Assembly (NCBI GenBank): GCA_964016885.1
Contig: OZ024743.1
Location: 109,616,001-109,680,000, forward strand
Origin: Eledone cirrhosa
Lineage: Eukaryota
Length of the DNA: 64,000 bases
Direction: 5' to 3'
This document shows positions 1-56,959 of the stretch, in pieces (the stretch's first letter is position 1; the number at the start of each line of letters is the position of its first letter). The position numbers and the translations under genes are program-made. The notes under the pieces are model-generated. The model did not search any database, was not told the origin of the DNA, and saw only the letters and a program-made list of their open reading frames with translations.

Positions 1-392
1 TCTACGCCACTCGTTCCCTCCCGGCGTCGGATCTTATCACACTCCGCGGGAATTCCGGCCGCCACGGGGGCCGGGTTGGCATTTGAGGGCCGGTCCCCGG
101 GTGGTCCCCCGCGCTCCGATTTACGGTCATTCTGTCGCCGCGGTGTGCGGCCAATGCTCACCATCTTCACCGCGTTAGTTTTAGCCATGTAGTCGGCCAT
201 GTTAGGTGCTGTGGAGAAGGAAAACATCACCGCGTGGCGGTTGAAGATTTTGTGGTACTTGTTCGTCGGCGGAAAGCACTCATCCAACGCTCGGAAGAAA
301 AGTACTGGCACATTTGTGCGTAATTGTTTGGAGTAAGGCGCATTAAACCAGGTAACGGTCTTAGATCTGTTCCTTCGTGTGCGTGGAATCGT
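1..392 (-). mobile_element. Penelope-like element fragment (RT-EN linker), runs off the left edge
   Basis: Manual minus-strand translation RSKTVTWFNAPYSKQLRTNVPVLFFRALDECFPPTNKYHKIFNRHAVMFSFSTAPNMADY aligns with the linker of the PLE at 48130-48330 (NIIWF.PPFSLNIKTHIAKLFFNALDNRFPRTHRYHSIFNRHTIKLTYSSTKNL). Not in the ORF track because it has no stop inside the window. Confidence 0.8.
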
Positions 393-1530
393 GTTGGTGT
401 GTATATGTGGAGTCGTGCATGCGTGTGTATACGTGTCTGTGTCTATGTACACACATATATATATATATATATATATATATATATATTTATATATATATAT
501 ATATATATATATATATGATGTGTGTATCTGTCAGTGGGTGTGTGTGGATGTGGGAGCGTACCTACACCCACATAGGATAGGGTTTGTCTATGTGTTTATA
601 TGCGGGTACATATACTTGTGTGTAGGTATATGTACATGTGTGTGTATGTGTGTGAATGTGTGCTTATGTATTTAGAAGTGTGTCTGTCCTTGATGTCTAT
701 CCATAAGGCTATGCGTGTATGTGCGTATGTATCCATGTATGTGTCTGAGAGTGTTTGTGTATATATGTGCTGATGTGCCAGACCTCCATTATGTGTTTTT
801 GTATGCGTGGATGTGTGTGTCTGCGCATGTGTGCGCGTATACTTGCGCGTGAGACCAGATGTATGGCGCTGTTTAGGCAGGCGCAATTAGGCATATGGCG
901 GTCATTATGTGGATGTGGGTGTGCCTCGGTTTATGGAAGAGAGGGAGTGTGTGTGCGTGTATAAATGTGCATCGGGGTATGTGTGTCTACACATGTGTGC
1001 GTGCGCATGTGTATGCATGCATGCGTGTGTGCCTGCACGTGTGTGTATATATGTGTGTGTGTGCATATGTGGGTACATACTATGGAGTGTAAACAGACGT
1101 GTGAGATACCAAACCCAGCATGGCTCCATTGAAGTGTGTCGGGCGGAAAATAGCTGATGACCAGTGTAGCAGTAAATAGTGACCAGAATTATGATGACGT
1201 AGAATAACAAAAGCCAATGGTATGACAAGAGTGGAAGAGGTTTTTTGAAGGTGTTTTTTGACGATAACACCCCAGTGAGAAAATTTGCTCCGAACGTATT
1301 GTCTGTGTCGGAAGGAACCTGCAGCCGTAGAATCAGCCAGATTCATACAGTGATCATATCTCGAGCTACCTGCCGGCGAAACAATTGTAACACGCAATAA
1401 ACTGAGTCCAGATGCATCACTGATTTTTCGTTTTTTTATACTATTCACACTCTGCTCTGTATGAATATTGAGTTTTAATTTTCGCATACCGCCTATGGAA
1501 GCACCATAGCTACCATAATACACACGTATA
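393..1530 (+). mobile_element. Probable PLE 3' UTR/pseudo-LTR, inverted relative to the adjacent ORF fragment; degenerate long-stem-II hammerhead at ~1303-1395
   Basis: TG-rich tract, then ...GGCGAAACAATTGTAACAC, AATAAA and a tail. The 1375-1530 segment is clearly homologous to 11073-11225. Confidence 0.5.
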
Positions 1531-4057
1531 TTTATATATATATATATGTGTCTGTGTGTGTGTGTGTGTGTGTGTGTGCGTATGTGTGTGCGTGCGTGTG
1601 CGTGCGTGGGTGTATGCATTTTATATTTTGAGTTAAGCATCCACTACTCTTATATCGAATTCCATGATGTACCTTCCAGGTGAACATGATTTAAACTCCG
1701 GGTACGTTGGCTTGTATTTCATATTGGTAAGCATTATTCTTATTTTTGTGGGCTTATTTCGTATACGTGGAATTAGCTTAAAATGACTTATCTACAGTAT
1801 ATATATATATATTCACGTACCTTATACTTCGTTTTAGTACAGAAACTGTCAGCCCAACTCCGCACTGATTTACTTAAGTTACATAATAATTTGAAAGTCA
1901 CCTTCAGGCTTATCCTAATTTATCCAGCCTGTGTATTAGATAGCACTGCTATCGATATTTAACTCATTCTTTTTGTATGTCTCACCTGAACATGTATAGC
2001 TTTTATCGGATCCTATTCTGCTTCATGAAATCGGAACATGTATCTCGAAAATGCTTTGTTAACTCTTCACTAGTATCACAGATCATACAATTGGTTACCG
2101 TCGCTGCTCTTTCATTTGTTACTACTCCAGATGTGACTTAAGCAATAAATGATGGAATAGAATTTCAAATATAGAATCTGTAACACCTCGTTTCATATTC
2201 GTGCGACTGTATATCGGACAAACATTTTCATTAAGCATTAATGTGGTGTAAAATGGTAACCTATGCATTTGATACATATATTTCCTCCATTTGAAATGCA
2301 CCAAATTAATATGATTCCTATACATTTCAAGGAATGTGTTACGCTTAATACTGCCCCCCTTACACTTCGGCGTATGCGTTTGATTTACACTGAAGCTTAT
2401 AAAGGAAAAAAAAACATGATACGTACATGGTAACAGAGAAATATACCCGATCCGATTATTTTGTTATTTTATCAATATGAATTTCAAATGCTATAGGTTG
2501 AAAAATATGACAGGCAATCATATACGGAATACTTTTGTCGGGACTAACTCCATTGTTTGATAAATGAATTGTGTGTTTAGACACTATTTATTTACGGTCA
2601 TAACTTATCTTGTCACATAGTTTTAAATGTTACACATAAGACATGTTGCTTTTACTTTGTCAAGAGCTGAAACCTGATCACACGTTACTGATATATTTTA
2701 GTAGAGCTGCGTACCAGCATCGCAACATCTCAATTTCAGAGCAGAAAAGCGTATTTGATATTGTGAAAATATATTCTTAACAACAGAATTAAATTGTGTT
2801 CTCCACTCTAGTGTATATAGAGTGTACATTTCTAATGTAATTATAATGAGGGGTATTATTTTTCAAGTGGCATTTATGTTGATTAATTACAATTTTATAG
2901 CTGGGACTATCAGAACAGAACCCTTTACCGAAACGAACAAGACCTAAAGTAACACTATATAGACACGCGTAAGTTAAATAAAGGCGTCACGATGTGAATA
3001 AAAATGTGATGTTTCATAAAGATAGAAGAATTTGAAGACGTTCGCACTATGTAAATTCGATCATAATGTATTAACTATGCATTTGCCACATTCTGTGTCT
3101 TTATCTATACCTTTCACGCTCACGTTTTCATACAAATATACTCAAACATATATAAACCATGTACACAGTAATACTGTGTATGAAGAACGTCAGTATGAAG
3201 AACGCAATTAATTCGCACAAAATGTGTTATCAAAATTCATATCGAGTCAATTTCGTACTAATGCCTAATCAAATATCGACTATGTCAATACGAGAGAAAA
3301 ATATCTGGATTAATATGAAATAGAAATATATGTGTAGTTATTAATTTAACAATCACATCTAAAGAAGGATTTGAAGGGAAAGCTATAAAAGCGTTATTCA
3401 TAAACACGCGCACATACACAATATACAATCACATATGCGCACATACCCACACACACATATATATATATATATATATGTGTGTCTCACACACACACATACA
3501 CACACACACACACACACACACACACACATATATATGTATATATATATATATATATATATATATATATATATATATATATATGTGTGTGTATATATATATA
3601 GATATATATGTATAAATATTTCTTCAATGGAATATATAAAAAGGAAACTAATCAGTATTGCAAGGTATCTATGTTCAAGGTTCTGGTTAGTTTTTAATAT
3701 GTTACGTCCGTAACTAGGTGTGTTTACACTCTTTATAAATTATCCCCTGTAATTGTTTGAAGTGTTTATATATATATATATATATATATATATATATACG
3801 TCCTTCGACTTTTAATTTAATTTTAGTAAATGCTCGGATTTATTACTTGGGATCTTTGAGCTTCTTCAACAGGTAATATGGCGCATGATTTTGATATTCT
3901 CAGACATGGCACTTTTAATCTGATTTGGGTAGTATATATATATATACATGTAGAAGTTGTATATAAGGTGTTGGATTCCGACAAACATGAATGCATTTCC
4001 GATCGATTAGGTATGATTTTCATTGGCACGTCTTTATTTATAAAACAAACTTTGTAT

Positions 4058-55345: not shown

Positions 55346-55726
55346 TATATATATATATGTGTGTGTGTGGGGGGGCGCGTGTGTGCGTGTGTGCGTGCGT
55401 GTGTGTTTGTGTGTGAGTGTGTATGTGTGTTTGGTGTGTGTGTGTGTGTGTCTATGTTGTGTATATATGTATTGTTATAATGTGGAAGGATCATACCACT
55501 AATAAAAGACTTACGTCCCTCATGTGTTTAACTTGGTTTGTATTATTAGTTAGGTAATTTATCCATTCTATTATATACATGTATGAATTTGTGTATGTTC
55601 ATATGTGAGCGTGTATATCTGAATGTGTGTAATTCAGTGAATATAATGAATATAATTACAAACACTCGCGAACACAAAAACAGACACATTCGCACAAACA
55701 CACACACACGCATATATATATATATA

Positions 55727-56959
55727 TATATATGAATATAGACATAGAATATTCGAAAATATTCTGTATGTTTATAATAAACATTTTGAAGACCTAATCG
55801 CTATAGAATAGAATACGTCACGTATTACAATTAGATTCTCGATAAAAGCAAGGGAAGTAATCTACGCGTTTCATTCTTGTTAGAAATCTTCAGGACTACA
55901 TATCCAGTGCTTTTATCGAGAATGACACAGCTAGAGACTTATAGAATACTTAGCTGTGTACAGGAACTGGTTTGAAAGAGCGGTTGCCGGTCCGGCAGAA
56001 ATTAGAAATTGGAATAAATGCTCTGCAATTTCTAATTTCTGCCGGACCGGCAACCGCTCTTTCAAACCAGTTCCTGTACACAGCTAAGTATTCTATAAGT
56101 CTCTAGCTGTGTCATTCTCGATAAAAGCACTGGATATGTAGTCCTGAAGATTTCTAACAAGAATGAAACGCGTAGATTACTTCCCTTGCTTTTATCGAGA
56201 ATCTAATTGTAATACGTGACGTATTCTATTCTATAGCGATTAGGTCTTCAAAATGTTTATTATAAACATACAGAATATTTTCGAATATTCTATGTCTATA
56301 TTCACATATATATCGCTATTTCAGAGCATTTATTCCAATTTCTAATTTCTGCCGGACCGGCAACCGCTCTTTCAAACCAGTTCCTGTACACAGCTAAGTA
56401 TTCTATAAGTCTCTAGCTGTGTCATTCTCGATAAAAGCACTGGATATGTAGTCCTGAAGATTTCTAACAAGAATGAAACGCGTAGATTACTTCCCTTGCT
56501 TTTATCGAGAATCTAATTGTAATACGTGACGTATTCTATTCTATAGCGATTAGGTCATCAAAATGTTTATTATAAACATACAGAATATTTTCGAATATTC
56601 TATGTCTATATTCACATATATATCGCTATTTCAGAGCATTTATTCCAATTTCTAATTTCTGCCGGACCGGCAACCGCTCTTTCAAACCAGTTCCTGTACA
56701 CAGCTAAGTATTCTATAAGTCTCTAGCTGTGTCATTCTCGATAAAAGCACTGGATATGTAGTCCTGAAGATTTCTAACAAGAATGAAACGCGTAGATTAC
56801 TTCCCTTGCTTTTATCGAGAATCCAATTGTAATACGTGACGTATTCTATTCTATAGCGATTAGGTCTTCAAAATGTTTATTATAAACATACAGAATATTT
56901 TCGAATATTCTATGTCTATATTCACATATATATCGCTATTTCAGAGCATTTATTCCAAT
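55727..56959. mobile_element. Retrozyme-like family C: 310-bp unit, three direct copies + one inverted copy, in (TA)n
   Basis: gccggaccgg at 56041, 56351 and 56661 (period 310). Inverted copy ~55730-56025. One HHR per unit; units nearly identical. Confidence 0.92.
56138..56180 (+). ncRNA. Type I hammerhead (identical copies at 56448-56490, 56758-56800; minus copy 55857-55899)
   Basis: gtagtc-CTGAAGA-tttct-aaca-agaat-GAAA-cgcg-TA-gattac. Stem I is extended by ttctcgataaaagca/tgcttttatcgagaa. Predicted cleavage after 56174. Confidence 0.9.

Follow-up and report, generated by a model that had tools for sequence, protein, structure and literature searches.

How the inverted arms and one-sided tails of Penelope-like elements (PLEs) are formed has been posed as an unsolved problem (PMC8557442, PMC11167929; here and below, papers are cited for the parts of them covered), and the same question is raised by a 64,000-nucleotide stretch of Eledone cirrhosa DNA, referred to as the window (G000:C4:109616001-109680000 in a 3.0-Gb animal assembly), which is AT-rich with abundant (TA)n. 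An earlier note on the window had reported one geometry repeated about 12 times at 14 loci, in which two arms lie back to back with their 3' ends pointing outward. Self-alignment and inspection of the sequence, with the sense strand taken from hammerhead ribozyme cores or open reading frames (ORFs), upheld 12 of the 14 loci as complete head-to-head pairs of one family. The other two are incomplete: 52227-54549 has no right-arm 3' end, and 1-1530 is partial, its two parts sharing no arm homology inside the window and being separated by a (TA)n tract at 455-516, while its left arm extends more than 1 kb upstream, where no end was found. The answer reached here is that a pair, with few exceptions, uses two fixed 3' start sites, one per end, a rule overlooked by the earlier note. 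The pairs are probably insertions made by dual target-primed reverse transcription (RT) at these two sites, with host end-joining likely fusing the two complementary DNAs (cDNAs).

The repeat families, designated by letters, each have two 3' sites lying 35-150 nt apart, and a pair ends at one of each, near-strictly so in ten families. All 12 complete pairs on the original list are heterotypic (one end per site), and one additional pair outside that list (5973-6327) is homotypic. Several outer ends lie farther out than first given because one arm bears the tail (45102 instead of 45187, 39610 instead of 39567, and 36467 instead of 36545). As first described, most ends adjoin TA-rich microsatellite: 25 of the 28 outer ends abut (TA)n, while of the remaining window positions 9.7% have (TA)5 no more than 30 bp away. 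The reported lack of convergent cases holds for directly joined arms of the same family, whereas neighbours belonging to different families can be found face to face with (TA)n between them (50320/50343, 51284/51341, and 5883/5973). Single arms, unmentioned previously, are also present (6456-9534, 26775-27216, 44046-45037, and 14654-14950).

A wider tally of orientations and flanks, which the earlier note had proposed, gave the same picture. In an 800-kb sample taken by position regardless of content, with the window left out and 15 family references used, the window families formed 85 clusters, comprising 28 divergent, no convergent, and 57 single ones. One or two of the divergent clusters (families J and F) are doubtful; 13 belong to family H, the commonest family in the sample with 20 clusters, and without it the divergent to convergent ratio is 15:0. 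Three short interspersed element (SINE) references served as controls over 800 kb and gave 85 clusters, of which 2 were divergent, 4 convergent, and 79 single; a 660-bp dispersed repeat of the window, also used as a control, was always single. (TA)4 was found within 20 nt of 79 of 113 outer 3' ends, against a background of 4.5%, and near 4 of 57 outer 5' ends, many of which are reference boundaries and not element ends.

The rule was examined most closely in family K, whose copies are nearly identical genome-wide, so that their ends can be read to the base. The 54 loci, picked by search score and not by geometry, with one full unit required, carry 55 clusters, of which 46 are divergent, 9 single, and none convergent. 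The two sites of this family, 1 and 2, lie about 35 nt apart, and every pair with two canonical ends has one of each (44 of 44; P ~6e-14 if the ends were independent), the other 2 of the 46 pairs having one odd end. The remaining families behave alike, with 13 of 13 pairs following the rule in family F, 10 of 10 in L, 15 of 15 in C, 17 of 17 in I (where the query fixed one arm), and 8 of 9 events in E. Family B gave 11 rule-following pairs and 3 odd ones, G2 gave 9 with 1 homotypic and 1 odd, and H gave 38, along with 5 odd pairs and 1 flagged as homotypic. Forty family A loci, classified by script after older copies too diverged for base-level ends had been left out, comprised 24 heterotypic, 1 homotypic, 1 odd, and 14 single cases, two of the singles showing a short low-complexity inverted arm on inspection. 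The ninth E event is a segmental duplicate, heterotypic at locus L290 and homotypic at L289; one E insertion with the same junction recurs in several duplicated segments (L289, L290, L247-L249; G000:C5 12.58-13.15 Mb), one copy being without a tail. Among single arms, 7 of 8 complete ones in K end at site 1, as if a site-2 partner had aborted, and those of A lean the opposite way.

These end counts bear directly on two published explanations. Craig et al. 2021 (PMC8557442) offered for the tail a staggered endonuclease resolution of palindromic or hairpin cDNA, here at both sites and followed by joining to the target, which would likewise leave a tail on just one arm. Were the cut of fixed polarity, however, the long arm would always carry the same site, yet in K the longer arm is the site-1 arm in 21 of 44 pairs, and arm lengths are uncorrelated. 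Arms are also non-nested in the E, F, and 50343-50766 pairs of the window and in five of the 44 K pairs, and in vitro such start sites map to RT initiation (PMC11167929), making this origin unlikely. Self-priming fold-back, the published model of Arkhipova et al. 2013 (PMC3846280), in which the cDNA folds or an antisense template self-primes so that the second arm is a copy, fares poorly on the same data. It predicts equal 3' ends, found in 0 of 44 K pairs and contradicted for most pairs, and nested arms, from which the same 5 K pairs depart.

The central junctions provide a further line of evidence. All 46 K junctions differ from one another: 8 are blunt, 30 show microhomology, and 8 carry 1-21 nt of inserted sequence, some inserts matching nearby unit sequence in a comparison made without a control. 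Microhomology of at least 2 nt occurs at 19 of 38 insert-free junctions, against 18% expected (p = 9e-6), so that the junction analysis put forward in the earlier note revealed an excess. This excess, three K junctions with 8-16 nt, and the near-symmetric junctions in H and at 33037 would also suit fold-back; symmetric K junctions are nevertheless not enriched (3 of 46, 1.6 expected), 16 of 46 have no microhomology, and 0 of 24 in-register variants are common to both arms (a weak point, as these may postdate insertion), which leaves that model highly improbable. In the family F pair, a 57-bp exact inverted copy of 47059-47115 occupies the junction (46799-46855), indicating a templated switch or inversion. 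In most family H pairs (e.g. 51095-51284), both arms stop in a zone about 10 nt wide, roughly 40 nt upstream of where the ribozyme is predicted to cut. The junction letters vary by copy and the upstream core is atypical; such a zone suggests that the RNA has a fixed 5' end or that RT meets a strong stop there.

Two further explanations can be weighed against the junctions. Pre-made palindromes spreading as miniature inverted-repeat transposable elements (MITEs), or two separate insertions in one TA tract, would account for the TA targets and the clustering of H junctions in a 10-nt zone. Either is very improbable given that no two K junctions agree and H junction letters vary per copy, that fixed inverted ends and a junction copied whole are not seen (the two ends of a K pair differ), that no TA tract lies between K arms, that convergent pairs do not occur, and that one duplication flanks the whole pair. 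As the palindromes sit in repeat-rich DNA, assembly fold-back was also considered, and contigs and restriction-site-associated DNA (RAD) reads bridged neither of two window junctions tested, an uninformative outcome. The arms nonetheless differ by 1-23%, their ends and lengths are unlike, the flanks are not mirrored, and other inverted K joints occur in independent contigs and RAD reads, so that such an artefact is hardly credible.

Direct target duplications were detected in 11 of 105 pairs, some of them at non-TA targets, whereas 20 shuffled pairings gave 0-5; they measure about 9-30 nt, although overlap with the element ends makes these lengths imprecise. Most of the other flanks consist of pure TA, in which a duplication would not be visible; among pairs with non-TA flanks on both sides 6 of 12 show a direct duplication. 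A duplication outside outward-pointing arms would imply two 3' overhangs, each priming one arm, and two primings at two sites would produce the one-site-per-end rule. Briefly, the PLE protein would make a staggered cut in both target strands, leaving 3' overhangs as the duplications suggest; both target 3' ends would prime RT, one at site 1 and the other at site 2; the two starts would be coupled, probably by a dimer; RT would read through an uncleaved multimeric or circular RNA; and host end-joining would likely fuse the two cDNA ends centrally. In vitro work on one PLE found both strands to be cut and extended, with two RT start sites bounding the tail (PMC11167929). The earlier proposal of priming from both ends of a break in (TA)n with central joining thus stands in its priming and joining, given the two sites used one per end, the de novo junctions with microhomology, and the target duplications, whereas the break appears to be a staggered cut with duplication, and (TA)n is preferred but not required, since duplications occur at non-TA targets.

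The template can be approached through the arms themselves. K arms reach 19 units and cross hammerheads, and none of 92 5' ends lies at the ribozyme cut, which argues that RT reads through the hammerheads. RT run-off at the cut was considered and rejected for C and K: the left arm of the 11008 pair starts there, but other C copies vary and K has no such end. No K arm 5' end falls at unit positions 131-159, over the hammerhead (P ~0.012 for such a gap). Tail-only arms amount to 8 of 14 versus 2 of 13 in family A (p 0.046) and 2 of 21 versus 0 of 23 in K (not significant); tailed short A arms often stop inside the tail, which is weak evidence given hand-curated A lengths. Partner arms in family F have more derived changes in common than non-partners (5.4 versus 1.5), which may point, weakly, to one source. 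Tail-only arms, the shared F variants, and the long K arms hint at a more specific version of dual priming, which as a joint claim is possible but doubtful: a PLE dimer on one uncleaved or circular RNA, its RT sites set at sites 1 and 2, would cut both strands and copy the RNA simultaneously; two-ended insertion would be the normal PLE cycle across clades, with single arms as aborted partners; and animal retrozymes would be circular passengers of the PLE machinery.

Several points weigh against dual priming at coupled sites. In vitro, the start site of a PLE did not differ between the two strands (PMC11167929), and single arms make up 57 of the 85 sampled clusters, so that a second arm is either non-obligatory or too short to detect. 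For I, C, G2, and in part H, the site of one arm was dictated by the query, and overlapping loci are possibly double-counted in the C, G2, H, L, and B tallies. Exceptions to the rule exist (the A locus L002, the window pair at 5973-6327, and the duplicated E copy at L289). Some multi-unit K arms expanded after insertion, as their private variants are duplicated, and the same-source signal is absent in E and A, while gene conversion could explain it in F. The evidence for the mechanism is wholly genomic.

Coding and non-coding families leave the same footprint. Coding PLEs, or the 3' ends of such elements, make up families B, C, D, E, F, and G. Family E has a single 837-aa open frame in L289 (Pfam RVT_1 8e-16, GIY-YIG 4e-6) with GxKF and DKG motifs, a reduced Cys linker, and CCHH; its named relatives are mostly from nematodes and cnidarians, making it a candidate Nematis-like element, with the Neptune clade as the alternative. 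A dimer structure prediction for residues 1-290 of this protein, run without an alignment, scored zero and gave no answer. The intact 750-aa frame of family F in L288 shows reverse transcriptase and GIY-YIG-like motifs by eye, although the protein had no Pfam match and a PDB search with its reverse transcriptase part found none. It shares DKT, an RWK-like motif, the CxCX5C linker, CxxC and CxH, a lack of CCHH, the hammerhead, and (TA)n targets with the Hydra clade (PMC8557442 section 11), in which it is provisionally placed by motifs alone. Partial tandem, inverted 5'-truncated copy, and tail are all present in E and F, and hammerheads near their 3' ends (50216(+), 45295(-), 38068(-)) are recognised at motif level only. 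Family C has a degenerate hammerhead core in 25 of 25 copies (window 11056-11100, L341-L365) and keeps the two-site footprint, its site 2 passing into (CA)n and then (TA)n.

The description of the elements as non-coding retrozymes applies to families K (310 bp) and A (442 bp), many of the others being 3' ends of coding PLEs. Both are short non-coding tandem units (longest ATG frames 30 and 47 aa) with one minimal type I hammerhead per unit, comprising core, stems I and II, and a palindromic stem III; K is predicted to cofold as a dimeric hammerhead, and both appear to fit the pattern of non-LTR (long terminal repeat) retrozymes. An Rfam scan showed no hammerhead among the 150 of 219 matches listed, which were chance miRNA-type matches. 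A strict hammerhead descriptor gave 14 matches in 464 kb against 0 in 5 shuffles but missed K and others, and a library approach was therefore used. An older relative of K, K2 (L009:1040-1232, L366-L390), has the K tail and both K sites; its non-coding tandem unit measures about 320 bp, and its hammerhead has a longer stem III. Partner searches for K, K2, and A, with the best 40 candidates scored, yielded only K or K2 arrays, and no coding partner or sequence link to a coding PLE was identified; K2, tried as a lead to an autonomous partner, was discarded as another non-coding unit.

Families K and A very probably use PLE protein in trans. The shared geometry, taken in the earlier note as direct evidence for this, is strong circumstantial evidence and not a direct proof, as no autonomous partner was identified. 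Were the non-coding families moved instead by a long interspersed element (LINE) or by repair, the shared layout would have arisen by convergence, a view that the missing sequence link and the presence of LINEs nearby would favour. It is nevertheless highly improbable, as the tail with its two sites, the head-to-head arms, the minimal hammerhead, and the bias to (TA)n all match those of the coding PLEs in the window, and the SINE controls lack such a layout. In L1 twin priming both target strands prime and the products join centrally with microhomology, but each half comes from a separate, non-overlapping part of a single RNA. The present arms overlap up to the 3' sites, as copies of a shared 3' region started at two fixed sites.

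Much of the layout is already known, including the inverted arms that the earlier note took as a PLE hallmark. Head-to-head arms, a tail on one inverted pseudo-LTR (pLTR), and target site duplications were described for Pen2a_Av (PMC3846280), a one-ended tail and (TA)n bias for PLEs in general (PMC8557442), and hammerhead pairs on opposite strands elsewhere (PMC4209133). The endonuclease-bearing PLEs (PMC3846280, PMC8557442 Fig. 2, and the D. virilis Penelope of PMC2377424) resemble the present families in their inverted 5'-truncated head-to-head copy, partial tandems, one-ended tail, target duplication, and (TA)n bias. The published layout, however, is 'often' or 'optional' and ascribed to self-priming or endonuclease resolution, whereas here a near-strict rule spans ten families with tails of 35-150 nt. 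In vitro, PAc (Poseidon of Anolis) likewise cuts and extends both strands at AT-rich targets with hammerhead cleavage dispensable, as here, but inverted products and site coupling are unreported in the parts covered, and the present data are genomic footprints from other clades and non-coding units (PMC11167929). Animal non-LTR retrozymes are similarly short non-coding tandems with a type I hammerhead each; their mobilisation by PLEs was proposed from co-occurrence and pLTR similarity (PMC7229834; bioRxiv 10.64898/2026.07.22.740005), insertion geometry playing no role there in the parts covered, and is argued here from that geometry, the motifs of K and A being minimal, predicted dimer-type ones known from sequence. 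A literature search covering few subscription papers and no supplements turned up no publication that states the one-site-per-end rule or describes such a footprint for retrozymes, and the supplements of PMC8557442, PMC11167929 (Fig. S2), and bioRxiv 10.64898/2026.07.22.740005 may bear on novelty; the two-site rule is sharper than the layout already known. The features of the window are collected in Table 1.

Table 1. Paired arms, single arms, and other repeats of the window (positions in nt; strand in brackets).
Feature	Position	Arms and 3' ends	Remarks
Hydra-type PLE fragment and family C 3' end with tail	1..1530	left (-), right (+) (~1096-1530)	ORF 3-530, continues upstream; possibly one insertion; left end unseen
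Family A pair (442-bp non-coding hammerhead unit)	5358..5883	left site 1; right site 2	right arm 5844-5883 is tail alone
Family G2 pair	5973..6327	both site 1	sole homotypic pair in window
Family C pair (Hydra-type PLE 3' end)	11008..11219	left site 1; right site 2	degenerate hammerhead core
Family A pair	24256..24961	left eroded site 1; right site 2	hammerheads 24485(-), 24644(+)
Family B pair	32268..33709	left tailed; right untailed	GIY-YIG C-terminus in each arm; near-symmetric junction ~33037
Family A pair	34769..35895	left site 1; right site 2	left arm 1.6 units
Family D pair	36467..37611	left tailed; right site 1	left: Hydra-type endonuclease fragment
Family E coding PLE (RT and GIY-YIG, Nematis-like)	37918..39610	long left site 1; short right, 43-nt tail	short arm 39393-39567 joins RT region straight to 3' end (~1.3-kb internal deletion)
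Family F Hydra-type PLE	45102..50320	short left, ~85-nt tail; long right site 1	hammerheads 45295(-), 50216(+)
Family B pair	50343..50766	short left tailed; long right untailed	
Family H mini pair	51095..51284	left site 1; right site 2	junction within family-wide stop zone
Family I pair	51341..51783	left site 1; right site 2	hammerheads 51443(-), 51538(+); tail ~145 nt
Family J pair	52227..54549	left site 2; right without 3' end	
Family K pair (young 310-bp non-coding hammerhead unit)	55733..56958	left one unit, site 1; right three units, site 2	blunt junction 56025/56026
Single 5'-truncated Hydra-type PLE arm	6456..9534	(+)	hammerhead 9454; ends at (TA)n
Single family A arm	26775..27216	(+), site 1	
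Single family B arm	44046..45037	(-), tailed	(TA)n on each side
Hammerhead-bearing single arms of other families	4055-4150, 43335-43551, 30150-30385, 15170-15400, 23952-24185, 26575-26640, 57090-57160		end in (TA)n
660-bp dispersed repeat, three copies	9634-10303, 25908-26568, 29456-30119		flanks TA-rich
Transposase-like fragment, by eye	57161-57800		no match
RTE-like fragment, by eye	59785-60408		weak zf-RVT match
LINE	60649-64000		gag-like ORF and APE endonuclease (Pfam Exo_endo_phos 3e-11); intact 1156-aa relative in L287

Extrapolation from the 85 clusters in 800 kb would put about 300,000 such pieces in the genome, and these are easily misfiled as MITEs or miRNA hairpins in annotation. 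The one-site-per-end rule turns the origin of the PLE inverted arms into a yes/no question for the existing in vitro system, for which near-identical RNA and protein candidates are supplied by K and by the intact E and F frames. Finally, with this footprint also left by a non-coding hammerhead family that is very young, the proposed mobilisation of animal retrozymes by PLEs gains support at the level of insertions.

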